Shown here: piece after piece, positions 1 to 61,748 of the stretch
Layout: every line of letters starts with the position of its first letter
Numbering within the stretch: the first letter of the stretch is position 1
DNA from: Candidatus Phoenicimicrobium oleiphilum
GTDB lineage: Bacteria > Atribacterota > Phoenicimicrobiia > Phoenicimicrobiales > Phoenicimicrobiaceae
Length of the DNA stretch: 64,000 nucleotides
Assembly: GCA_039638295.1 (NCBI GenBank)
Contig: JBDIWJ010000003.1
Span: 16,289-80,288, forward strand
Reading direction: 5' to 3'
Notes under the pieces: model-generated
Told to the model about the DNA's origin: nothing
The model's database searches: none
Seen by the model: the letters and a program-made list of their open reading frames with translations, nothing else
Translations under genes and position numbers: made by a program

Positions 1-822
1 AAAATAGTCGAGAAAGACAAAATAAAAAAAATAGCATTTGAAAGTAAAAATATTAATTATGCTGATTTTAAAAAATACTCTGACCGATTCCAAAATGTAG
101 AATTTATACCCACCGAAAATTTTATTGAAAAGATAAGAATGGTTAAAGATAGAGAAGAAATAATTAAAATAAAAAAAGCTGCTCAGATAACTACGGAAAG
201 TCTAAAGGAAGTATTTGAGATGATAGAACCAGGGGTAAGAGAACTTGATATTGCCACGGAGTTAGCTTATACTATGAGGAAAAAGGGTGCTCGAAAAGAA
301 GCTTTTGAATCAATTGTAGTATCAGGAGAAAGGTCATCTTTGCCCCATGGAAAACCTTCGGAAAAGAAGATTAGTGAAGGAGAGTTAATAACTATTGATG
401 TAGGCGCTAATTATCAAAATTATAATTCTGATATTACCCGAACGATAATTTTGGGGAAGGAAAATGAGAAACAGAAAGAAATGTTTTCTATTGTCTTAGA
501 AGCTCAAGAAGAAGCCCTTAAATCTTTAAAACCAGGATTAAAATGTAATGAAGTTGATTCTATTGCTCGGAATCTAATTGAAAAAAAGGGGTATGGAAAA
601 TATTTTGGGCATGGTTTAGGCCATGGAGTAGGGCTAGATATTCACGAATTGCCTCGAGTTTCTTTTAATGATGAAACAGTTCTCCTACCCGGAATGATAA
701 TAACTATTGAGCCCGGAATATATTTACCTAAAATCGGAGGGGTCAGGATTGAAGATTCAGTTTTGATAACTGAGGAAGGTTATGAAATAATAACCTGGTT
801 CCCTAAAATTTTAAATCTTTGA
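1..822 (+). CDS. Xaa-Pro aminopeptidase / M24B peptidase, C-terminal part (5'-partial, continues upstream of window)
   Basis: The reading frame is open from base 1 with no stop until 822. It has the M24 pita-bread fold motifs (HGLGHGVGLDIHE, GMIITIEPGIY). The N-terminal region upstream of the ORF-track ATG (NFIEKIRMVKDREEI) resembles the PepP linker. Confidence 0.8.
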   Translation, partial: KIVEKDKIKKIAFESKNINYADFKKYSDRFQNVEFIPTENFIEKIRMVKDREEIIKIKKAAQITTESLKEVFEMIEPGVRELDIATELAYTMRKKGARKEAFESIVVSGERSSLPHGKPSEKKISEGELITIDVGANYQNYNSDITRTIILGKENEKQKEMFSIVLEAQEEALKSLKPGLKCNEVDSIARNLIEKKGYGKYFGHGLGHGVGLDIHELPRVSFNDETVLLPGMIITIEPGIYLPKIGGVRIEDSVLITEEGYEIITWFPKILNL

Positions 823-1206
823 AAATAAGATTAAGTATTGCATTTTAAGATAATTATAGTGTAATGTTGAAAGTTATATTAACTGGAGATTGGGCATGAA
901 GAATGGAAATTTATTAGCAAATAATGTCGAAAATTATAACACCAACGTAGGACAGGCGTCTCGCCTGTCCTACGGACGTTGAAGGAGGTACAGTAGACAG
1001 GCGAGACGCCTGTCCTACTAGTATTTGCCATTCCCATGGAAACAGGAATCTAGAATAATGTCAAAAAAATAGATTCCTGCTTACGCAGAAATGACAAAGA
1101 ATAGTAGGAGCGTATTGTTATACGACTTATAAAAAATAAATAGAATAAAATAATAATAAAAGCAGAAAAATTTTGATAAGTTAATTATTTCAAAAGGAGA
1201 GAAGAT

Positions 1207-2445
1207 ATGAATAATTTAAAAAATGTTGATCCTGAAATATTTAAAGCGATAAAAGGTGAAGAAAATCGTCAAAAATATACTATAGAATTGATTGCTTCAG
1301 AGAATTTTGTTTCTTCAGCTGTATTAGAAGCGCAAGGGTCTGTTTTAACTAATAAATATGCAGAAGGATATCCTGGTAAAAAATATTATGGAGGGTGCCA
1401 TTATATTGATATTGTAGAAAATATTGCCATTGAAAGAGCTAAAGAAATATTTAAAGCTGACCATGCAAATGTTCAACCACATTCTGGCTCGCAGGCTAAT
1501 ATGGCGGTTTATTTTAGTGTTTTGGAGGTAGGGGATACTATTTTGGCAATGAATCTATCTCATGGTGGCCATCTCACCCACGGAAGTCCGGTAAATTTTT
1601 CTGGTAGATTTTTTAATATTATTCCTTATGGAGTAGATAAAGAAACGGGAAGAATTGATTATGATTGTTTAAGAGATCTTGCTATAAAAAATAAACCTAA
1701 AATGATTGTTGCTGGTGCAAGTGCTTATCCCAGAGAAATAGATTTTTCGACTTTCAGATCTATAGCTGATGAAGTAGGGGCATACTTGATGGCTGATATT
1801 GCCCATATTGCGGGTTTAGTTATTGCCGGTCTACATCAAAGTCCTGTTCCTTATTGCCATTTTGTAACCACTACTACACATAAAACTTTGAGGGGGCCAC
1901 GCGGCGGTTTAATTTTGTGCACAGAAGAGTATGCTCGTTCGATAGATAAAACCATATTCCCCGGGATTCAAGGAGGACCTTTGATGCATGTAATTGCTGC
2001 TAAAGCCGTTTGTTTTAAACAAGCAATGACTAAAGAATTTAAAGAATATCAAAAACAAATTATAAAAAATACCAGGGCATTGGCAAATAAATTAATGGAA
2101 TTAGGTTATAATTTGGTATCTGGAGGAACTGATAATCACTTAATTTTAGTAGATTTAAGAAATAAGGGAATCACCGGGAAACAAGCTGAAAATGCCTTAG
2201 AAGAAGCCGGAATTACTGTTAATAAAAATACAATTCCCTTTGATCCACAAAAACCTATGATTACCAGCGGAATAAGAATTGGGACTCCAGCAGTTACTAC
2301 TCGAGGGATGAAGGAGAAGGAGATGGAAGAAATAGCAGAGATGATTAATATAGTTTTGAGTAATATAGAAAGCAAAAAAATTAAAGAAGAAATAAGAAAA
2401 AAAGTTGAGAATCTTTGTGGGAAATTTGTACAGAATGAATGTTAA
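1207..2445 (+). CDS. glyA: serine hydroxymethyltransferase
   Basis: 412 aa with conserved SHMT motifs ([21 protein letters not shown]). A GGAGAG RBS sits 8 nt upstream of the ATG. Confidence 0.95.
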
Positions 2446-2579
2446 TGAGTAATGAGGTGTAGGGGCACGATGCATCGTGCCCACAGGTAAAGAAAGATAA
2501 TAAAACAGGAAGGGCACAATTCATTGTGCCCTACAATATAATTCGGAAATAAAGAATTAAGCAAAAGGGAGGTTTTATT

Positions 2580-3137
2580 TTGATTTCTACTAGTGACTTC
2601 AAGAAAGGATTGACTATTGAATTTAAGGGAGAGATATATAGTATTGTTGATTTTCTCCACGTAAAACCGGGTAAGGGTGGTGCATTTGTCCGCACTAAGC
2701 TAAAAAATATTAAAACTGGTTTAGTAGTGGATAAAACTTTTAGGGCAGGAGAAAAAATGGAGCAAGCTATAATCGATCGAAAAACTATGCAGTATTTATA
2801 TAATGATGGTGAAAATTATTATTTTATGAATAAAGAGACTTATGAACAGATATCATTACCCAAAGAGCAAATAAGTGAAATAGGGGAGTTTCTCAAAGAA
2901 GGAGAAGATGTAGAAATTATATTTTGTAAGGGTGTTGTGATAAGTGTGGAATTACCCAATTTTATGAATTTGAAAGTAATTAAGACTATGCCGGGAGTAA
3001 AGGGCAATACTGTGTCAGGAGCGCTTAAACCAGCTACATTAGAAACTGGGGCAATAATTCAAGTTCCTTTATTTATAAAAGATGGTGATATAATTAAAGT
3101 AGATACCAGGGAGAAGAGGTATATAGAAAGAGTATGA
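2580..3137 (+). CDS. efp: elongation factor P
   Basis: 185 aa starting MISTSDFKKGLTIEFKGEIY...KPGKGGAFVRTKLKN. It uses a TTG start with an AAGGGAGG RBS 8 nt upstream. Confidence 0.93.
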   Translation: MISTSDFKKGLTIEFKGEIYSIVDFLHVKPGKGGAFVRTKLKNIKTGLVVDKTFRAGEKMEQAIIDRKTMQYLYNDGENYYFMNKETYEQISLPKEQISEIGEFLKEGEDVEIIFCKGVVISVELPNFMNLKVIKTMPGVKGNTVSGALKPATLETGAIIQVPLFIKDGDIIKVDTREKRYIERV

Positions 3138-3330
3138 ATTCGCATCTCGTGAATCGTATCTCTTATTTAGTTATCTGGTTAGTTGGTTACCTAGTTAGCT
3201 GGTTGAGGAATGATTATATTAAAGAATTAATATTAAACTAATTAACCAACAAACCAGTTAACTAGCTAACTAAACACTAGCGAGATACGAAATACGAACG
3301 ACTATTTATGAGAGCGGGGTGGAGCAATCA

Positions 3331-3750
3331 ATGCAAACCATTAAAACTGAACTTGGAGAAATAAATATTTCTAAAGAAACTATTGGATATATCGTTCGTT
3401 TAATTTTAGTTGATATTAAAGGTGTGGCAGGCAGTAAAAAAACGGTTATGAATGAAATAACCGATATGTTAATGGGAAACACTGATATAATTAGTGATAC
3501 TTCAAGTAATATAAAAATAGAAATAAAGGATAACAAAATTTTCATTGATTTATTTATTATAATAAAATATGGAGTAAGGATACCAGACATAGCCTGGGAT
3601 ATACAAAACAGGATCAAAGAAGAATTAATAAGAAAAATTGGTACAGATACTAGCGAGATAAATATACATATTCAAGGGATACAGTTTCCTAAAAAAGCAC
3701 AGAGTAAAAAAGAATTAGTTGCATCTGATCTATTCATACAGGTTTTCTAA
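3331..3750 (+). CDS. Asp23/Gls24 family alkaline-shock protein (YqhY-like)
   Basis: Asp23-like sequence (IGYIVRLILVDIKGVAGS). The ATG at 3331 has GGAG 6 nt upstream; the ORF track instead offers an alternative GTG at 3319. The position upstream of nusB matches Firmicutes synteny. Confidence 0.8.
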   Translation: MQTIKTELGEINISKETIGYIVRLILVDIKGVAGSKKTVMNEITDMLMGNTDIISDTSSNIKIEIKDNKIFIDLFIIIKYGVRIPDIAWDIQNRIKEELIRKIGTDTSEINIHIQGIQFPKKAQSKKELVASDLFIQVF

Positions 3751-7359: not shown

Positions 7360-7952
7360 AAATATTAGTCGCATCTAAAAATTTAGATAAAGTTAAAGAA
7401 ATCAAAGAGATGTTAAAAAATACTAATTTAAAAATATTAACTATAAAAGATTTTCCTGAGCTTCCACAAATTGAGGAAGATGGAAAAACATTTATGGAAA
7501 ATGCCTTAAAAAAGGCTTGTAAAATTTCGCAGTATACCGGTAAAATTTGTTTAGCTGATGACTCAGGCTTAGAAATAGATTATTTAAAGGGAAAACCAGG
7601 TATTTACTCCTCAAGATGGGGGAATTGTGATGCAGAACGTATCAGTAAAGTTTTAGAATTACTAAAAGATGTGCCAGAAAATAAAAGAGGTGCTAAATTT
7701 ATATGTGTCTTAGTACTTGCCTTTCCAGATGGGAGAAGATATATAGTAAATGGAGAGTGCAAGGGAAGAATTTCTGTTAATCCCAGAGGAGAATATGGTT
7801 TTGGTTATGACCCTATTTTTTTAGTTCCCGAATATAATAAAACATTTGCTGAATTAGGTGAAGAAATAAAAAATCGCATAAGTCATAGAGGAAAAGCTTT
7901 TAAAAAAATGATTAAAATAATAAATAAATTAGTCGTTAGTAATAGTCGATAG
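7353..7952 (+). CDS. rdgB: dITP/XTP pyrophosphatase (Ham1/RdgB family)
   Basis: 199 aa starting [10 protein letters not shown]... with FGYDPIF. It overlaps the rph stop. Confidence 0.9.
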
Positions 7953-8277
7953 TCGATAGTATGACCGGTGCCTTAATTGGTTTAATATACCTTTATAATA
8001 TAATGATATTATACCAGACAATTTTTTCCTGCTTAAAAATGAAAAAATATGAAATATTTGTTAAAAAATTTTATTCGAATATCGTTTTTTGTATATCTCA
8101 TATAGTAAAAATAGTAATACCGTTAGCCAGTTTGCCAGTTACCCGGTCAAAGAATTAAAATCAACTTTCTTAACTGGATAACCGGTAAACAGGGTAACTG
8201 GGTAACTAATACGCGATACGATTTACTAACGACTATTCACTATCGACTAGTTAAGAGTTTTGAATTATGGTTTTTCG
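7927..8277 (+). repeat. ~350-bp dispersed repeat, copy A, with heptamer-tiled terminal inverted repeats (MITE-like)
   Basis: About 95% identical to the reverse complement of 52254-52608. Its ends are tagtcgttagtaatagtcgatagtcgatagt and actaacgactattcactatcgactagtt. An internal ccagttaccc...gggtaactgg hairpin is present. Confidence 0.85.
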
Positions 8278-8392
8278 CTTATTCGTTTTTACGGGCACAA
8301 GTTTCGCTTTAAGTTTTTAGCTGTATATCGATAACAGAAAGTCGACAATAAAAAATTTGGTTACTCTTAACAAAAAATTGTAAAGGAAGCGA

Positions 8393-8432: not shown

Positions 8433-8510
<78 letters not shown>

Positions 8511-8586
8511 GCGGGAATAGCTCAGTTGGTAGAGCACCAGCCTTCCAAGCTGGGTGTCGCGGGTTCGAGCCCCGTTTCCCGCTCCA
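8511..8586 (+). tRNA. tRNA-Gly (anticodon TCC)
   Basis: gcgggaatagctcagttggtagagc... with anticodon loop cTTCCaa. CCA is encoded. Confidence 0.85.
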
Positions 8587-8599
8587 GATGTAAACTCTC

Positions 8600-8676
<77 letters not shown>

Positions 8677-8695
8677 ATCTAAAAATATATAATAT

Positions 8696-8774
8696 GGTGG
8701 GCGTAGCTCAGACTGGTTAGAGCCCTGGATTGTGGCTCCAGAGGTCGGGGGTTCAAATCCCCTCGCTCACCCCA
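8696..8774 (+). tRNA. tRNA-His (anticodon GTG) with G-1
   Basis: Extra 5' G, acceptor gtgggcg/cgctcac, anticodon loop tTGTGgc and discriminator C. CCA is encoded. Confidence 0.82.
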
Positions 8775-8793
8775 TATTGGTATTAAATGTTTT

Positions 8794-8870
8794 GCGCTCG
8801 TAGCCCAATTGGATAGAGCTGCGGACTTCGGATCCGATGGTTGGGGGTTCGAGTCCCTCCGAGCGCGCCA
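8794..8870 (+). tRNA. tRNA-Arg (anticodon TCG), divergent paralogue of the TCT tRNA
   Basis: Closely related to the Arg-TCT tRNA. The anticodon loop is cTTCGga. It has one mismatch in the D-stem and one at position 27-43. CCA is encoded. Confidence 0.65.
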
Positions 8871-8880
8871 AATGTTTTGT

Positions 8881-8956
8881 GGGCCGTTAGCTCAGGTGGC
8901 AGAGCACCTGACTTTTAATCAGGGTGTCACAGGTTCGAATCCTGTACGGCCCACCA
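8881..8956 (+). tRNA. tRNA-Lys (anticodon TTT)
   Basis: gggccgttagctcaggtggcagagc... with anticodon loop cTTTTaa. CCA is encoded. Confidence 0.85.
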
Positions 8957-8969
8957 CTAAAATACAAAG

Positions 8970-9054
8970 GCGAGGGTGGTGGAATTGGTAGACACGCTGG
9001 ATTTAGGATCCAGTGGGTAAAACCATGCGGGTTCGAGTCCCGCCCTTCGCACCA
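8970..9054 (+). tRNA. tRNA-Leu (anticodon TAG), class II with long variable arm
   Basis: gcgagggtggtggaattggtagacacg... with anticodon loop tTTAGga and variable arm tgggtaaaaccatgc. CCA is encoded. Confidence 0.82.
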
Positions 9055-14888: not shown

Positions 14889-15059
14889 AAATACCATAAC
14901 AGTATCGAGTATCAAGTATATAGTATCCAGTAAAGAGAAAAAAAGAAAGAGAGAATGACTGAAAAATAAAATATATTTATCGGACGACGATAAAACTAAT
15001 AAAAAAATTATAATTTAAATTTATGATTATAACCCAAAAAGTGAAAAATATTTAAATTT

Positions 15060-18035: not shown

Positions 18036-18120
18036 TCGTTAGTGAATAGTGAATAGTAAGGAAGGTAATTGAAAAGTAGAGGTGTGGTGCTTATACTAAC
18101 GACTATTCACTATTAACTAA
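18033..18120. repeat. heptamer-tiled inverted-repeat element
   Basis: The arm tagtcgttagtgaatagtgaatagta faces the arm tactaacgactattcactattaacta. The element overlaps the valS stop. Confidence 0.8.
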
Positions 18121-18142
18121 CAACTGATTTGTAGAGGTGAGT

Positions 18143-22573: not shown

Positions 22574-23599
22574 ATGAACCAGGAAAATTATTTAGATTAC
22601 GAAAGAATATTAAATCATATAAAAAAAGAAAATATTCGTCCTATTTATTTATTTTTTGGAGGTGAAAACTATTTAAAAGAAAATATTTTAAATAAATTTA
22701 GAGAAAAATTGATCAATCCTAACCAAAGAGAATTAAATTATAAAGTATTTTATGGTGAGAAATGTTCGATAAGTGAAATAATAAATGAGATGGAAACAAT
22801 TCCTTTTATATCTAAATATAAATTAGTAGTAATAAAAGAAGCAGAAAAAATTGCCCAAACAGATGAAGTAAAATTGATAGATTATTTAAATCGATTTAGT
22901 TTAAGTAATAATTTTTCTATACTAATACTAATATATAAAGAAAATGCTCCAGATAAAGAAATAATTAAGGCAGTTAAAAGGATAGGTTTAATAGTTAATT
23001 TTAATGTTCCAGATAAATCTAAATTAATTCTATGGACAAAGGCTAAATTTCGTCAAAGTAATAAAGAAATTACTCCAGAAGCTTTATTTTATTTACAATC
23101 TTATGTTGGTTCTGATTTGGGGTATCTTTTTAATGAAATAGAAAAAATAGATATTTGTACCAAAGATAAAAAGGTAATAGAGAAGGAAGATGTTGTTGCT
23201 GCTATAGGTGGCTCAGAATCTGTTAATATATTCAAGGTTTTAGATTCTTTAGGCGAAAAAAAGTCAAATAGTGCAATAGATGGATTAGTAAAATTAGATA
23301 ATAGTAATCTTCATTATTTGTCTATACTTGCAATGATTTACAGGCAAATAAGACTTATATTCCATACAAAATTATTGCTTTTAAGTGGGGCTGATTTTAA
23401 TCAAATAAGAAAAGAATTAAAAATACCTTCTTTTATTGTTGAAAAAATAGCAAAACAATCGAAAAAATATACTATTAAGGAACTTTGCCAGGCTTATAAA
23501 TTATTAAATATTGCGGATTTGGAATTAAAAGATAGCCAGAAAAATCCACAAATTATTTTAGAAGAGTTGGTTATGAATATTATAAATCAGAATAAATAG
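22574..23599 (+). CDS. holA: DNA polymerase III delta subunit
   Basis: 341 aa starting IYLFFGGENYL... Downstream of comEC, as in Bacillus. Confidence 0.85.
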   Translation: MNQENYLDYERILNHIKKENIRPIYLFFGGENYLKENILNKFREKLINPNQRELNYKVFYGEKCSISEIINEMETIPFISKYKLVVIKEAEKIAQTDEVKLIDYLNRFSLSNNFSILILIYKENAPDKEIIKAVKRIGLIVNFNVPDKSKLILWTKAKFRQSNKEITPEALFYLQSYVGSDLGYLFNEIEKIDICTKDKKVIEKEDVVAAIGGSESVNIFKVLDSLGEKKSNSAIDGLVKLDNSNLHYLSILAMIYRQIRLIFHTKLLLLSGADFNQIRKELKIPSFIVEKIAKQSKKYTIKELCQAYKLLNIADLELKDSQKNPQIILEELVMNIINQNK

Positions 23600-23658
23600 T
23601 ATTTCGTATATCGTATATATTATATCGTGAAGAAAAATAGGAGTCAGAATCCAGAAAT

Positions 23659-23694
23659 GTCATTGCGAGCGAGCGTAGGGAGCGTGGTAATCTC
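23659..23694. repeat. 35-nt cattgcgag...aatctc repeat unit (copy 1)
   Basis: gtcattgcgagcgagcgtagggagcgtggtaatctc. About 85% identical to the units at 59182-59217 and 59229-59264. Confidence 0.8.
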
Positions 23695-23767
23695 AGAAAA
23701 TAGTGTGTAACAAGAAGCAGGTAGAATATAATAGTAATGTGTAATAAGTGATGAGTAATATGTAGTG

Positions 23768-23847
23768 GTTCGATTCATCGAACCCGCTAACGGTGGGGCA
23801 GGTTCTCGCCTGTCCGTAAAATAACTCGGGGCGGATAAATCCGCCCC
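23768..23847. repeat. cluster of GC-rich palindromes in the holA/rpsT convergent spacer
   Basis: ggttcgattcatcgaacc at 23768-23785. A degenerate ggcaggttctcgcctgtcc at 23797-23815. ggggcggataaatccgcccc at 23828-23847. The last one, with the following T-rich run on the - strand, is the likely rpsT terminator. Confidence 0.7.
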
Positions 23848-23903
23848 CTACGCTTAACAAATAAGAAGAATAACTATTGAATTAATGAATAATTTTGGAA
23901 ATA

Positions 23904-24383
23904 TTATTCACTTTTAGTTTCTGTTTTCTTCTTTACAGATTTTTTGGTTGATTTGGCTACTGTTTTTTTCGCAACTTTTGTGGTTTCTTTAGCTTTAGCT
24001 TTTTTAGTTGGTTTTGAAATCTTTTTGGCTACTGTTTTTTTTACTGTTTTTGTGGGTTCCTTTGCTATTGGTTTTTTCTCAGCTTCTGTTGTTTTTTCAA
24101 TTTCAGTCACCTGTGTAGGTTTGGTTAAAATATTTAATTTTTTTGACAATCTCGATTTTTTGCGAGAAGCAGCCCCTTTGGGCAGAATACCTTTGTCAAC
24201 AGCTTTATCCAGGCTTGAAACTGAATCTTTAAAATATTTAATAACATCGTTTTCATTTTTTTCTTCTAAGGCTAGATTGAATTTTTTTATATTTGTTTTT
24301 ATTTTGGATTTATATGTAATATTTCTTAAATGACTTTTTTCAGCAGTTTTTACTCTTTTTATTGCAGATTTTATTCTGGGCAT
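23904..24383 (-). CDS. rpsT: 30S ribosomal protein S20 with Lys/Ala-rich C-terminal extension
   Basis: The N-terminal ~85 aa (MPRIKSAIKRVKTAEKSHLRN...) is canonical S20. It is followed by a ~70-aa KKTVAKK-rich tail. Confidence 0.88.
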   Translation of the reverse strand: MPRIKSAIKRVKTAEKSHLRNITYKSKIKTNIKKFNLALEEKNENDVIKYFKDSVSSLDKAVDKGILPKGAASRKKSRLSKKLNILTKPTQVTEIEKTTEAEKKPIAKEPTKTVKKTVAKKISKPTKKAKAKETTKVAKKTVAKSTKKSVKKKTETKSE

Positions 24384-29039: not shown

Positions 29040-29218
29040 TTAGATTAGTATCTCGTATCCCCGTTTTCACGGCGATAAGTCTCGTGAAGAAAATTAGAAA
29101 TTAAACGTAGGGGCACAATGTATCGCGCCCTCAAAAGCTGTATCCTTGTCCAACTAACGACTATATTATTTAGCAAATTGGTGAATAGGTGAATAGAAAA
29201 TTTATTTTCTTGAAACAT

Positions 29219-29259: not shown

Positions 29260-29286
29260 TTAGCACTCTCAAGGGGAGAGTGCTAA
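29260..29286 (+). promoter_or_regulatory. CIRCE operator (HrcA binding site)
   Basis: Perfect TTAGCACTC-N9-GAGTGCTAA inverted repeat. Confidence 0.9.
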
Positions 29287-32964: not shown

Positions 32965-33014
32965 AAGGGCATCAGAATTTCAAAAATTCCGATGCCCTTA
33001 ATGAATATTTTTTT
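32965..33014 (+). terminator. intrinsic terminator after dnaK
   Basis: Long hairpin aagggcatcagaattt-caaa-aaattccgatgccctt, followed by a T7 run. Confidence 0.7.
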
Positions 33015-33125
33015 AAAAAACAATATATTCTAACAAGATTGTCAGAAAAGTTTTATATAAAATCGAAATGAAGTAAAAAGGAGATAGAGGGGTTTCAGGG
33101 GAGTTTTCTCCCCTGGCAATCTTGT
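33008..33125 (+). ncRNA. duplicated structured element (copy 1), candidate small RNA or protein-binding hairpin
   Basis: The 63-nt segment aaaaaacaatatattctaacaagattgtcagaaaagttttatataaaatcgaaatg is near-identical to 41177-41239. The caagattgtcag...ctggcaatcttg 12-bp stem encloses the palindrome TTTTATATAAAA and a ggggag-tttt-ctcccc hairpin. Confidence 0.45.
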
Positions 33126-33164
33126 CGTTAGTATTACGTAAATAAGATTAAGATTCAGGGATAG

Positions 33165-33222
33165 GGGCACGATGCATCGTGCTCAAATCAAGAAAGAATT
33201 GCGGGTCGGATAAATCCGACCC
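33165..33222. repeat. GC-rich palindrome pair upstream of dnaJ
   Basis: gggcacgatgcatcgtgctc (33165-33184) and gggtcggataaatccgaccc (33203-33222). The same two families occur at 2463-2482 and 23828-23847. Confidence 0.75.
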
Positions 33223-33354
33223 CTTGTACACTAAAGGTATTTTACTAGTCATACTATACACTATACTTGTACTATAACAATATCTATATACGAAATTGGT
33301 ATTAGATATTTGTTTTTTTGATAATTAAAATAACATTAGAGAGGAAATTGTTAA

Positions 33355-40810: not shown

Positions 40811-41173
40811 ATGGTTGCTTCGCACACTAAAAGATCTGAACAATTAGAAAAATATCTTAAAAAAATAATCAATAATATTCTTTATAGAAAAATAAATGAT
40901 CCAAGAATTAGTTTTGTTACTATAACAAGAGTGTCTGCCTCCGCAGATTTAAAATACGCCAAGATATATATCAGTATTTATGGTGATGAAAATCACAATA
41001 TAAATTGTTTAAAAGCGCTAAGAAATGCTACAAAATTTATAAGAGGAGAAATCGGAAGAGAATCAAAAATTAGATTTGTACCAGAAATTAAGTTTCTAAT
41101 CGATGAAGACATAGAATATCAATACAAATTGTTGGAGTATCGGAATTTCAAAAATTCCGATACTCCAAAATGA
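40811..41173 (+). CDS. rbfA: ribosome-binding factor A
   Basis: 120 aa with the RbfA KH-like domain (RISFVTITRVSASADLKYAKIYISIYG). Confidence 0.9.
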   Translation: MVASHTKRSEQLEKYLKKIINNILYRKINDPRISFVTITRVSASADLKYAKIYISIYGDENHNINCLKALRNATKFIRGEIGRESKIRFVPEIKFLIDEDIEYQYKLLEYRNFKNSDTPK

Positions 41174-41176
41174 ATG

Positions 41177-41259
41177 CTTTTTAAAAAACAATATATTCTA
41201 ACAAGATTGTCAGAAAAAGTTTTATATAAAAGCGAAATGTCACTCCCCTGACAATCTTG
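41177..41259 (+). ncRNA. duplicated structured element (copy 2)
   Basis: Near-identical to 33008-33070, with a closing stem caagattgtcag...ctgacaatcttg. It lies directly after the rbfA stop. Confidence 0.45.
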
Positions 41260-44299: not shown

Positions 44300-44533
44300 G
44301 GTAGGGGGCAATATGCATAATCTTTTGAAGATATTTTTGGCTTTTTGTGGAATAACCATAGTATATAAATTAGCTACTAGTGAATAGAAAATAGTATAAG
44401 AACGAAGTAAACTAACTGCTAACGACTTTTCACTAACGACTAATTGTTGAAGGGTCTAATTGTTTATGCTAAAATAATTTAGCTTATTAATAATAAAAAT
44501 TTAAATCATCAAAAAACAAAAGGAGATATTAAT

Positions 44534-47061: not shown

Positions 47062-47529
47062 GTGAATTTAAAGTTGGCAATTAATAGGATAGAAATAAAG
47101 TTAGAAAAAGCAAAAGGTTGCGAAGACCTGCCTTTACCTGTTTCTGCAAGTGAATTTTCGTCAGGAGTTGATTTATTATGTGCAGAAACTTCGGAGATTA
47201 TATTAAAACCTGGCCAAATAAAATTAGTTTCTACAGGCATTAAAATTATGATACCTGAAGGATATGAAGGTCAAATAAGGCCACGTAGTGGTCTTGCTCT
47301 TAAATATGGTGTTACTGTTTTAAATACTCCAGGAACTATCGATTCTGATTATAGAGGAATTGTAAAGGTAATATTAATTAATTTAGGTGAAAAGGATTTT
47401 ATTATACAAAGAGGAGACAGAATCGCTCAATTGATAGTTCAAAAAGTATTTTATCCTGATTTTAAATTAGTTAAAACTTTAAATAATACAAAAAGAGGAG
47501 AAGGTGGATTTGGACATAGTGGCATATAA
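47062..47529 (+). CDS. dut: dUTP diphosphatase
   Basis: 155 aa with dUTPase motifs (SAGVDL, RSGLALK, GTIDSDYRG). GTG start. Confidence 0.88.
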   Translation: MNLKLAINRIEIKLEKAKGCEDLPLPVSASEFSSGVDLLCAETSEIILKPGQIKLVSTGIKIMIPEGYEGQIRPRSGLALKYGVTVLNTPGTIDSDYRGIVKVILINLGEKDFIIQRGDRIAQLIVQKVFYPDFKLVKTLNNTKRGEGGFGHSGI

Positions 47530-47631
47530 TAAGTAATAAGTAATGAGTAATGAGTAATAAGATTAAATTTTCTAATTACTGAAAACTACTACTTACCGCG
47601 AATTACTCATTACTCATTACTTATTTACTTT
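47530..47631. repeat. heptamer-tiled inverted-repeat element
   Basis: The arm (gtaataa gtaatga gtaatga gtaataa) faces its reverse complement across a 38-nt spacer. It begins immediately after the dut stop. Confidence 0.85.
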
Positions 47632-52253: not shown

Positions 52254-52608
52254 AAGCGAAAAACCATAATTCAAAACTCTTAACTAGTCGATAGTGAATA
52301 GTCGTTAGTAAATCGTATCGCGTATTAGTTACCCAGTTACCCTATTTACCGGTTATCCAGTTAAGAAAGTTGATTTTAATTCTTTGACTGGGTAACTGGC
52401 AAACTGGCTAACGGTATTACCATTTTTACTATATGCGATATACAAAAAACGATATTCGAATAAAATTTTTTAACAAATATTTCATATTTTTTCATTTTTA
52501 AGCAGGAAAAAAATTGTCTGGTATAGTATTATTATATTATAAGGGTATATTAAACCAATTGAGGTATCTGTCATACTAACGACTATCGACTATTCACTAA
52601 CGACTAAT
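52254..52608 (-). repeat. ~350-bp dispersed repeat, copy B (inverted relative to copy A)
   Basis: The reverse complement aligns end to end with 7927-8277, with about 15 mismatches or indels. Confidence 0.85.
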
Positions 52609-59018: not shown

Positions 59019-59181
59019 TTTTCCAAAAGGTAAATAATGATTTGTATATCAGGTAGCGTTTAGCATATAGAGAATACAGTAATTAGTAATGTGTAATAAG
59101 TAATAAGTAGAGATAAAGTATAGTAAAATAGCGAAAAACGAAAAACCATAATTTAAAATTCAAAACTTTTTGTACTTTTCT

Positions 59182-59264
59182 GTCATTGCGAGCGACCACA
59201 GGGAGCGTGGCAATCTCTTTATGATATTGAGATTGCTTCGTCGCTGAAGCTCCTCGCAATGACA
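59182..59264. repeat. inverted pair of 35-nt cattgcgag units
   Basis: gtcattgcgagcgaccacagggagcgtggcaatctc at 59182-59217. Its inverted partner (reverse complement gtcattgcgaggagcttcagcgacgaagcaatctc) is at 59229-59264. The two are separated by tttatgatatt. Confidence 0.85.
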
Positions 59265-61612: not shown

Positions 61613-61748
61613 TGTAAAGTGTAATAAGTAACGTGTAATAAATAACTGTTTTTATAATTTTAAGTTTAATCTCATAACTTATTACCTATTACTTGTTACT
61701 GTATTTTATACGAGACACGATTCACGAAATACGAATTTAGTTATTTGA
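61611..61748. repeat. heptamer-tiled inverted-repeat element
   Basis: The arm gtgtaaagtgtaataagtaacgtgtaataaataac faces cttattacctattacttgttac. This is followed by cgagaca cgattca cgaaata cgaattt heptamers. Confidence 0.8.

Follow-up and report, generated by a model that had tools for sequence, protein, structure and literature searches.

GTAG-tagged REP palindromes, mostly paired as REPINs, in the spacers of an Atribacterota genome, and their probable assignment to RAYT group 4

The GC-rich palindromes of the Candidatus Phoenicimicrobium oleiphilum window (the whole 64-kb stretch of DNA analyzed) are very probably GTAG-tagged REPs, mostly arranged as REPINs, of a RAYT/TnpA_REP (HUH/Y1) system of subclass 2.4, i.e. 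RAYT group 4. The elements share a common architecture and lie outside genes; their dimer is dispersed, polymorphic by site and biased in orientation, and related contigs display the REPtron arrangement, in which a RAYT gene is flanked by its own REPs. A sequence-only reading of the window had hesitated between REP-like elements and the operator sites of a dimeric regulator. The first of these proposals is supported by several features: the GTAG feet, the inverted dimers, the extragenic location, the many unrelated sites, and the adjacency to RAYT genes in related Atribacterota contigs.

The window has a GC content of ~30% and a positive GC skew, and its + strand carries nearly all genes; intergenic DNA amounts to 7.4 kb, or 11.5% of its length. 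The SHMT and DnaK encoded here have the very sequences of MAG proteins recorded under Atribacterota bacterium. Metagenome contigs L001-L006 carry the window sequence with at least 99.9% identity, and hence represent one strain with no polymorphism among them. L001 extends the window by 8.8 kb upstream, making ~73 kb of the genome readable. All REP counts for this genome cover these ~73 kb only, which harbor two full type-A REPINs and at least four other REP units.

Footed hairpins and dimers in the window

The seven palindromes listed in the sequence-only reading are all present, with exact starts at positions 2463, 2512, 29111, 33165, 23828, 33203 and 23767. Their coordinates had been given to within 1 nt, two of them being shifted by one base (2511 and 23768 instead of 2512 and 23767), while the start at 29110 corresponds to 29111 plus an extra G. 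They had been described as perfect 20-nt palindromes, which is true for 2463-2482 only; the other copies are imperfect, with a non-palindromic center of 2-4 nt or 1-3 mismatches. The GC-rich palindromes are confirmed and exceed the chance expectation by far. With up to 3 mismatches allowed, the 20-mer has 4 matches in the window, against 0.00 in 100 shuffles. A scan for hairpins of 8 or more pairs, with no more than 1 mismatch and a GC fraction of 0.55 or higher, returns 9 GC-rich hairpins, whereas 30 local shuffles give 0.67 on average, and 8 of these 9 fall in the intergenic 11.5% of the window. The stems of the window hairpins are 7-13 bp long and their loops 0-4 nt.

In nearly all copies, a GTAG foot is located directly 5' of the stem, or appears as CTAC at its 3' side when the copy is inverted. 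The feet are found on the outer side at 2459, 2532, 29107, 23762, 23848, 946/971 and 993/1015. Seven of the nine intergenic hairpins of the window possess a GTAG/CTAC foot, and one more has TAG. Most copies assemble as inverted dimers with their feet pointing outward, GTAG-hairpin...hairpin-CTAC, which is the organization of a REPIN (Table 1). The pairing of the copies had been correctly recognized from the sequence alone, as opposed to the GTAG/CTAC feet, the 946-1018 family and the dimer (REPIN) organization, which were overlooked; the decayed copies fit the earlier idea of propagation followed by drift.

Table 1. Footed elements of the window with their arms, and one foot-less hairpin (positions are those of the window)
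Feature	Position	Strand	Sequence and context
Type-A REPIN	2459..2534	+	between glyA (SHMT, 1207-2445) and efp (2580-3137)
Left arm of REPIN 2459..2534	2459-2482		GTAG+GGGCACGATGCATCGTGCCC
Right arm of REPIN 2459..2534	2512-2534		GGGCACAATTCATTGTGCCC+TAC, after an A-rich 29-nt spacer
Solo type-A REP, decayed stem	29107..29130	+	GTAG+GGGCACAATGTATCGCGCCC; 3' of a radical-SAM/HemN-like gene, 130 nt upstream of the hrcA CIRCE operator
Mixed A+B dimer	33162..33229	+	dnaK-dnaJ spacer
Left arm of dimer 33162..33229	33162-33184		TAG+GGGCACGATGCATCGTGCTC
Right arm of dimer 33162..33229	33203-33229		type B, GGGTCGGATAAATCCGACCC, decayed foot CTTGTAC
Composite dimer (E+B)	23762..23851	+	between convergent holA and rpsT
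Left arm of dimer 23762..23851	23762-23784		GTAG-T-GGTTCGATTCATCGAACC
Decayed type-C hairpin nested in dimer 23762..23851	23792-23818		
Right arm of dimer 23762..23851	23828-23851		GGGGCGGATAAATCCGCCCC+CTAC
Two double-foot type-C REPs, opposite orientation	946..1018	.	M24 peptidase gene-glyA spacer
Type-C REP 1	946-974		cGTAG-GACAGGCG-TCT-CGCCTGTC-CTACg
Type-C REP 2	993-1018		GTAG-ACAGGCG-AGA-CGCCTGT-CCTAC
Foot-less GC-rich hairpin	33096..33115	.	CAGGGGAG-TTTT-CTCCCCTG, dnaK-dnaJ spacer

The REPIN downstream of glyA folds locally into two strong hairpins, with z = -5.6 for DNA and -4.8 for RNA. A second type-A REPIN is located ~3 kb upstream of the window (L001, 5761-5838), with identical arm asymmetry and spacer length, and a third in contig L015, which belongs to another Atribacterota species, in an unrelated gene context. 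The composite elements also have counterparts elsewhere: an A+B composite with intact feet (GTAA...CTAC) is found in an Atribacterota MAG (locus L033), an E+B dimer without the nested hairpin in L154, and both arm families of the latter occur with CTAC feet in Atribacterota-like contigs. A 25-nt exact match to the type-C REP adjoins the REPIN in L015, and further members of the type-C family, GACAGGCGAGACGCCTGTC+CTAC, are present in metagenome loci. As the hairpin at 33096..33115 has no GTAG/CTAC foot, its membership of the REP set is uncertain. The sole minus-strand ORF beside a REP cluster (23904-24383, near the cluster downstream of holA), a suspected RAYT, encodes ribosomal protein S20 (rpsT).

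A T-tract follows none of the copies on the + strand, as established by a scan of positions 800-3400 and by direct reading of the other flanks. The sequence-only reading had named fewer than about five copies genome-wide, or a U-tract after each of them, as evidence against its proposal: the copies are many and the T-tracts absent. Plain intrinsic terminators are thus rejected, the T-tract being missing from the transcribed strand at all copies, and the CRISPR, attC and terminator readings are ruled out on anatomy. An Rfam search of the window matched 7 tRNAs and nothing at the hairpins. These seven tRNA genes are clustered on the + strand at 8433-9051.

Other repeats are present in the window. 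Long AT-rich inverted repeats start many spacers right past the stop codon (47528-47625, 18036-18130, 3138-3300, 61613-61740, 44380-44450, 59073-59109, 23599-23628 and 14901-14932). They are made of tandem words of 7-8 nt, e.g. taagtaa/tgagtaa ... ttactca/ttactta, and TRF identifies period-7 arrays in these spacers; we take them to resemble the heptamer STRR repeats of cyanobacteria. In related contigs such as L253, REPINs have word repeats of this kind right beside them. A 355-nt inverted repeat, 96% identical between its copies at 7928-8280 and 52254-52608, encloses ~44 kb. Both copies are intergenic and contain word repeats, one being just upstream of the tRNA cluster; the pair may belong to a dispersed repeat or may delimit an invertible segment.

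The motif GTCATTGCGAGCGA...AGGGAGCGTGGCAATCTC is found twice, at 23659-23695 and at 59182-59263, the second copy being a full hairpin that terminates in CTCGCAATGAC. It appears to represent a further small family of repeats, sequences of this type being known from many phyla. A 100-nt segment is shared, with 90% identity, by the 3' side of dnaK (32971-33070) and that of the gene ending at 41173 (41139-41239), and includes the hairpin-like aagggcatc...gatgccctt (32965-33000). Finally, the hairpin TCCCCGTTTTCACGG(C)GA at 29058-29075 represents another repeated family, devoid of the GTAG foot and also present in related loci (L133-L252); in Atribacterota-like contigs, TCCCCGTGAAAACGGGGA is found 5 times and ATTCCCGCGAAAGCGGGAAT 7 times.

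Dispersal across genomes and association with RAYT genes

An exact search for GGGCACRATNNATYGTGCCC, with one genome per species, returned at least 119 loci, for a chance expectation roughly estimated at ~35 matches. The loci listed belong to Acidobacteriota, Chloroflexota, Thermodesulfobacteriota/Deltaproteobacteria, Atribacterota, Cyanobacteria, KSB1, Omnitrophota, Verrucomicrobiota, Bacteroidota/Rhodothermales, Bacillota and Patescibacteria, with locus GC ranging from 32 to 74% among the matches listed. Most of the listed 20-mer matches are bordered by GTAG and CTAC and form a 28-nt palindrome; the fuller form, GTAG-GGGCACGAT-NN-ATCGTGCCC-CTAC, is found in more than 10 phyla. The only neighbors recurring among the at least 119 cross-phylum loci are response regulators, a generic family, and palindrome-bearing RAYTs. 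To note, a Chloroflexota chromosome (OZ244814.1; L066, 6362-6949) contains three copies of the 28-nt palindrome with identical flanks and a 284-nt period, and hence a longer unit arrayed in tandem.

The dimer was searched in metagenome contigs with both arms exact, yielding at least 120 loci and at least 128 instances; the matches listed, in Atribacterota-like contigs, have a median locus GC of 0.35. Among the instances listed, GTAGGG forms the left flank in 105 of 128 and CCCTAC the right flank in 117 of 128, and the left arm, the spacer length and the right arm are constant, including at the two loci of this genome. The most frequent spacer measures 33 nt from one 16-nt core arm to the other, or ~29 nt between the full 20-nt palindromes. 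Depending on how the flanks are clustered, the instances represent at least 44, 82 or 87 distinct sites, and dimer flanks display a T at position -1 in 66 of 87 sites and an A at +1 in 83 of 87. Dimer-bearing contigs hold further hairpin families, including all the stems of the window, each with a CTAC foot.

The position of the elements relative to genes, which the sequence-only reading had put forward as a check, is uneven: copies lie outside genes, mostly 3' of co-oriented ones. Indeed, of the 129 listed dimer instances, 126 do not fall within an ORF of 100 aa or more, and a median of 97 nt separates the stop codon of the co-oriented upstream gene from the dimer among the matches listed. 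In the same matches, the dimer is co-oriented with its upstream gene in 83 cases versus 20, and lies on the G-rich strand in 103 versus 26. The bias persists in the 44 de-duplicated sites (32:12 for co-orientation, p = 0.004; 34:10 for the G-rich strand, p = 0.0004). It could stem from RNA-level selection instead of strand-specific insertion.

Orthologous spacers have been found filled in one contig and empty in another (L162 versus L015/L207, L135 versus L154, and L212 versus L193), and one orthologous site carries a solo arm in one contig and the full dimer in another. Since the extra flanking bases differ and the filled/empty junctions are ragged, insertion is indistinguishable from deletion at these sites, and the alignments, with their ragged ends, yield no callable target site for the dimer.

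Among the at least 119 palindrome loci, the sole meaningful recurrent gene is an ORF of 175-200 aa that contains the palindrome. It matches the NCBIfam model REP_Tyr_transpos (E 1.6e-19, 70 bits, which is below the 80-bit cut-off) and Pfam Y1_Tnp (E 4e-7), and its homologs in public sources are named "REP element-mobilizing transposase RayT". A phmmer search of a single RAYT against the PDB gave no match; the RAYT family profile matches the structure of E. coli TnpA_REP (PDB ID 4ER8, E 4e-6), with an alignment spanning WQxxxxEHxxR. This segment corresponds to W94, Q95, E100, H101 and R104, the GTAG-contacting residues of E. coli TnpA_REP (PMC6006769). The RAYTs exhibit the HuH motif MPNHFHGII, the segment WQRNYYEHIIR and the Y motif YILENP/YIQNNP; N84, H85, W143, Q144 and Y164, among others, are invariant in 32 sequences.

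Within the RAYT gene, the palindrome separates the HuH motif (MPNHxHGII) from the segment EQFGKP...WQRNYYEHIIR...YIxNNP. This internal hairpin is read as GRGTMHRAPT or CKGTMHPAPT and, in one gene, in another frame as VGARYIVPL. The pattern GT-xx-RAP is present in 134 of 252 RAYT homologs, and its central dipeptide (MH, LQ, AR, VH or AC) fits a palindromic DNA center in 121 of 143 motifs against 13% expected, which indicates that the constraint acts on the DNA. In seven RAYT proteins (P0020, P0033, P0041, P0058, P0073, P0079 and P0080) the hairpin-bearing segment is repeated in tandem, with 2-3 copies (...GRGTMHRAPT..EKFGKPTSNTIPTI...), and hence the internal REP region has been amplified in-frame. 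A RAYT subgroup (P0139, P0141, P0142, P0149, P0155 and L257) harbors KGVLQYAPT, corresponding to GGGCGTATTGCAATACGCCCCTAC, instead of RGTMHRAPT, with FRSPSQTIGS instead of FGKPxSGSIPT just downstream, and REPs of the GGGCGTAT type border its gene, an indication that every RAYT lineage carries within it a REP type of its own.

REPtrons are found in the low-GC Atribacterota-like contigs L159, L253, L257 and L265. On either side of their RAYT gene lies the REPIN known from the window. In L159, the order is REPIN, 40 nt, RAYT, 8 nt, REPIN, and the internal hairpin reads CKGTMHPAPT; the other three contigs are arranged alike, with GGGCGTAT-type REPs in addition. A RAYT is located near a REPIN in L165, L187, L228 and L237 as well. 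The position of the gene is constant across many samples, either lspA-lgt-RAYT-rluD or GAF/HD-RAYT-ligA. UniRef attributes one RAYT cluster to Candidatus Sediminicultor, a genus of Atribacterota (JS1).

The search for a RAYT gene that the sequence-only reading had called for succeeded in these related contigs and was negative in the ~73 kb of this genome: tblastn identified none in either the window or the 8.8 kb preceding it. The matches of RAYTs to the window are limited to 7-11 hairpin codons, with no flanking RAYT coding sequence. The lgt-rluD and ligA neighborhoods, where RAYTs reside in relatives, are not in the window, and ten RAYT clusters list no member accession from this MAG.

Proposed mode of spread and competing explanations

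By analogy with E. coli TnpA_REP and IS200/IS605, the RAYT would bind the single-stranded hairpin and read its GTAG foot through WQxxxxEHxxR, and would cut and rejoin single-stranded DNA, thereby seeding or maintaining copies. This would probably take place on the single-stranded DNA of the replication fork, a location that would fit the strand bias. Cleavage and joining of the cognate single-stranded REP would likewise follow the model of E. coli TnpA_REP (PMC3479197 and PMC8266576). Copies in 3' untranslated regions may secondarily stabilize or end transcripts as RNA hairpins, a role that is compatible with the data.

The hairpin inside the RAYT gene might be more than a tolerated insertion, namely a functional cis site maintained at the DNA level and serving as master/donor copy or in autoregulation; we consider this rather unlikely. 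If true, travel with the gene would explain how one stem, GTAG-GGGCACG...CGTGCCC-CTAC, came to be common to more than 10 phyla at 32-74% GC, and the system of the Atribacterota (JS1 lineage) would still be active, inserting REPINs in a strand-specific manner.

Could the palindromes be host elements selected mainly for an RNA function, spreading independently of any transposase and acting as 3'-end hairpins that end transcripts with no need of a T-tract or shield mRNA from 3' exonucleases? Their location in the 3' regions of co-oriented genes, the median of 97 nt past the stop codon and the orientation bias, all among the matches listed, would suit such a function, as would the stable RNA hairpins formed and the secondary RNA roles published for E. 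coli REPs. We nevertheless consider this explanation improbable: selection for 3' hairpins accounts neither for the conserved GTAG/CTAC feet and the conserved left/right asymmetry of the dimer, nor for a 28-nt sequence present in more than 10 phyla at 32-74% GC, nor for the copies flanking and inside RAYT genes, and T-tracts are absent after the copies. The RNA function and the REP interpretation are compatible, provided that the RNA role is secondary.

That the palindromes are remnants of degraded RAYT genes, i.e. of their internal hairpin segment, rather than independent repeats, is very improbable. The hairpin does belong to RAYT reading frames, and some RAYTs contain 2-3 tandem hairpin segments; however, the tblastn matches cover 7-11 hairpin codons only, RAYT coding sequence is absent from their flanks, and the spacer of the dimer is conserved as a non-coding A-rich stretch.

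The operator proposal of the sequence-only reading draws on dyad symmetry and intergenic sites, one of them in the spacer upstream of hrcA, and is almost certainly incorrect: the sites are 3' of genes and not at promoters, the 76-79 nt dimer recurs in at least 44-87 unrelated contexts, several unrelated stem sequences share common feet, the 28-nt form is found in more than 10 phyla and within RAYT reading frames of other phyla, and the hrcA spacer has its own separate, perfect CIRCE (TTAGCACTC-N9-GAGTGCTAA, 29260-29286). This CIRCE overlaps the mechanically called GTG start of hrcA at 29280; the true start is therefore probably further downstream.

Relation to described REP systems and significance

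All findings fit the published descriptions of subclass 2.4 and of GTAG-tagged REPs. The GTAG-tagged REP superfamily was described in several phyla by Di Nocera, De Gregorio and Rocco (2013, PMC3733652). In the portion of that paper available to us, its members share several features with the present elements: short GC-rich stem-loops with a terminal GTAG, the published stems being 6-13 bp long; the coexistence of several families per genome; a predominance of head-to-head dimers whose two members are separated by 20-100 bp and turn their GTAG ends outward; a location mainly 3' of genes, between unidirectional or convergent ORFs; and an association with RAYTs. The same portion reports 24 consensus families, and the likeness drawn here is one of architecture; Atribacterota is not among the phyla it names. 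A literature search combining Atribacter and REP found no paper, and an exact-sequence literature search for the palindrome returned unrelated primer matches only.

TnpA_Y1 subclass 2.4 (Quentin et al. 2018, PMC6006769) is equivalent to RAYT group 4 (Bertels et al. 2017, PMC5581495) and has been described from Cyanobacteria, Bacteroidetes and a range of other phyla (PMC6006769). Its REPs are "long" and "double foot", with a 5' GTAG and a 3' CTAC (PMC6006769, PMC5581495). The subclass motifs NH[IFV]H, WQ and YIxNNP have their counterparts in MPNHFHGII, the WQ motif and YILENP / YIQNNP; the 5' GTAG and 3' CTAC of the REPs and their patchy spread over many phyla are shared as well, and the in-frame hairpin between the HuH and Tyr motifs of the related-contig RAYT matches that of published subclass 2.4. 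Two differences are found: the window copies are mostly single-foot dimer arms and not double-foot monomers, and the RAYT is seen in related Atribacterota-like contigs only, with none in the ~73 kb of this genome.

The REPINs of Pseudomonas and Enterobacteria (Bertels and Rainey 2011, PMC3116915) resemble those of the window in that the repeated unit consists of two inverted REPs and a short spacer, with an associated RAYT in a conserved chromosomal position. Unlike these classic REPINs, which go with RAYT groups 2 and 3, the present ones go with group 4, their arms are consistently unlike variants (GATGCATC versus AATTCATT), and mixed-arm dimers occur (A+B, E+B). With Rho-independent terminators, the elements share a GC-rich hairpin past the stop codon; they differ from them by the absence of a T-tract on the transcribed strand and by the conserved GTAG/CTAC feet.

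The understanding of how REPs work is unchanged by the finding, which adds Atribacterota to the hosts of the REPIN/RAYT group 4 system. It also points to a risk for annotation in this uncultured lineage, where the hairpins may be annotated in error as terminators, operators or small ORFs; GRGTMHRAPT and KGHNSLCPY, for example, are peptides obtained by translating the repeat. The asymmetric dimer, with its dozens of sites, its 3-4:1 orientation bias and the fixed positions of its RAYTs, provides a usable data set that could serve the study of REPIN persistence in slow-growing subsurface bacteria.
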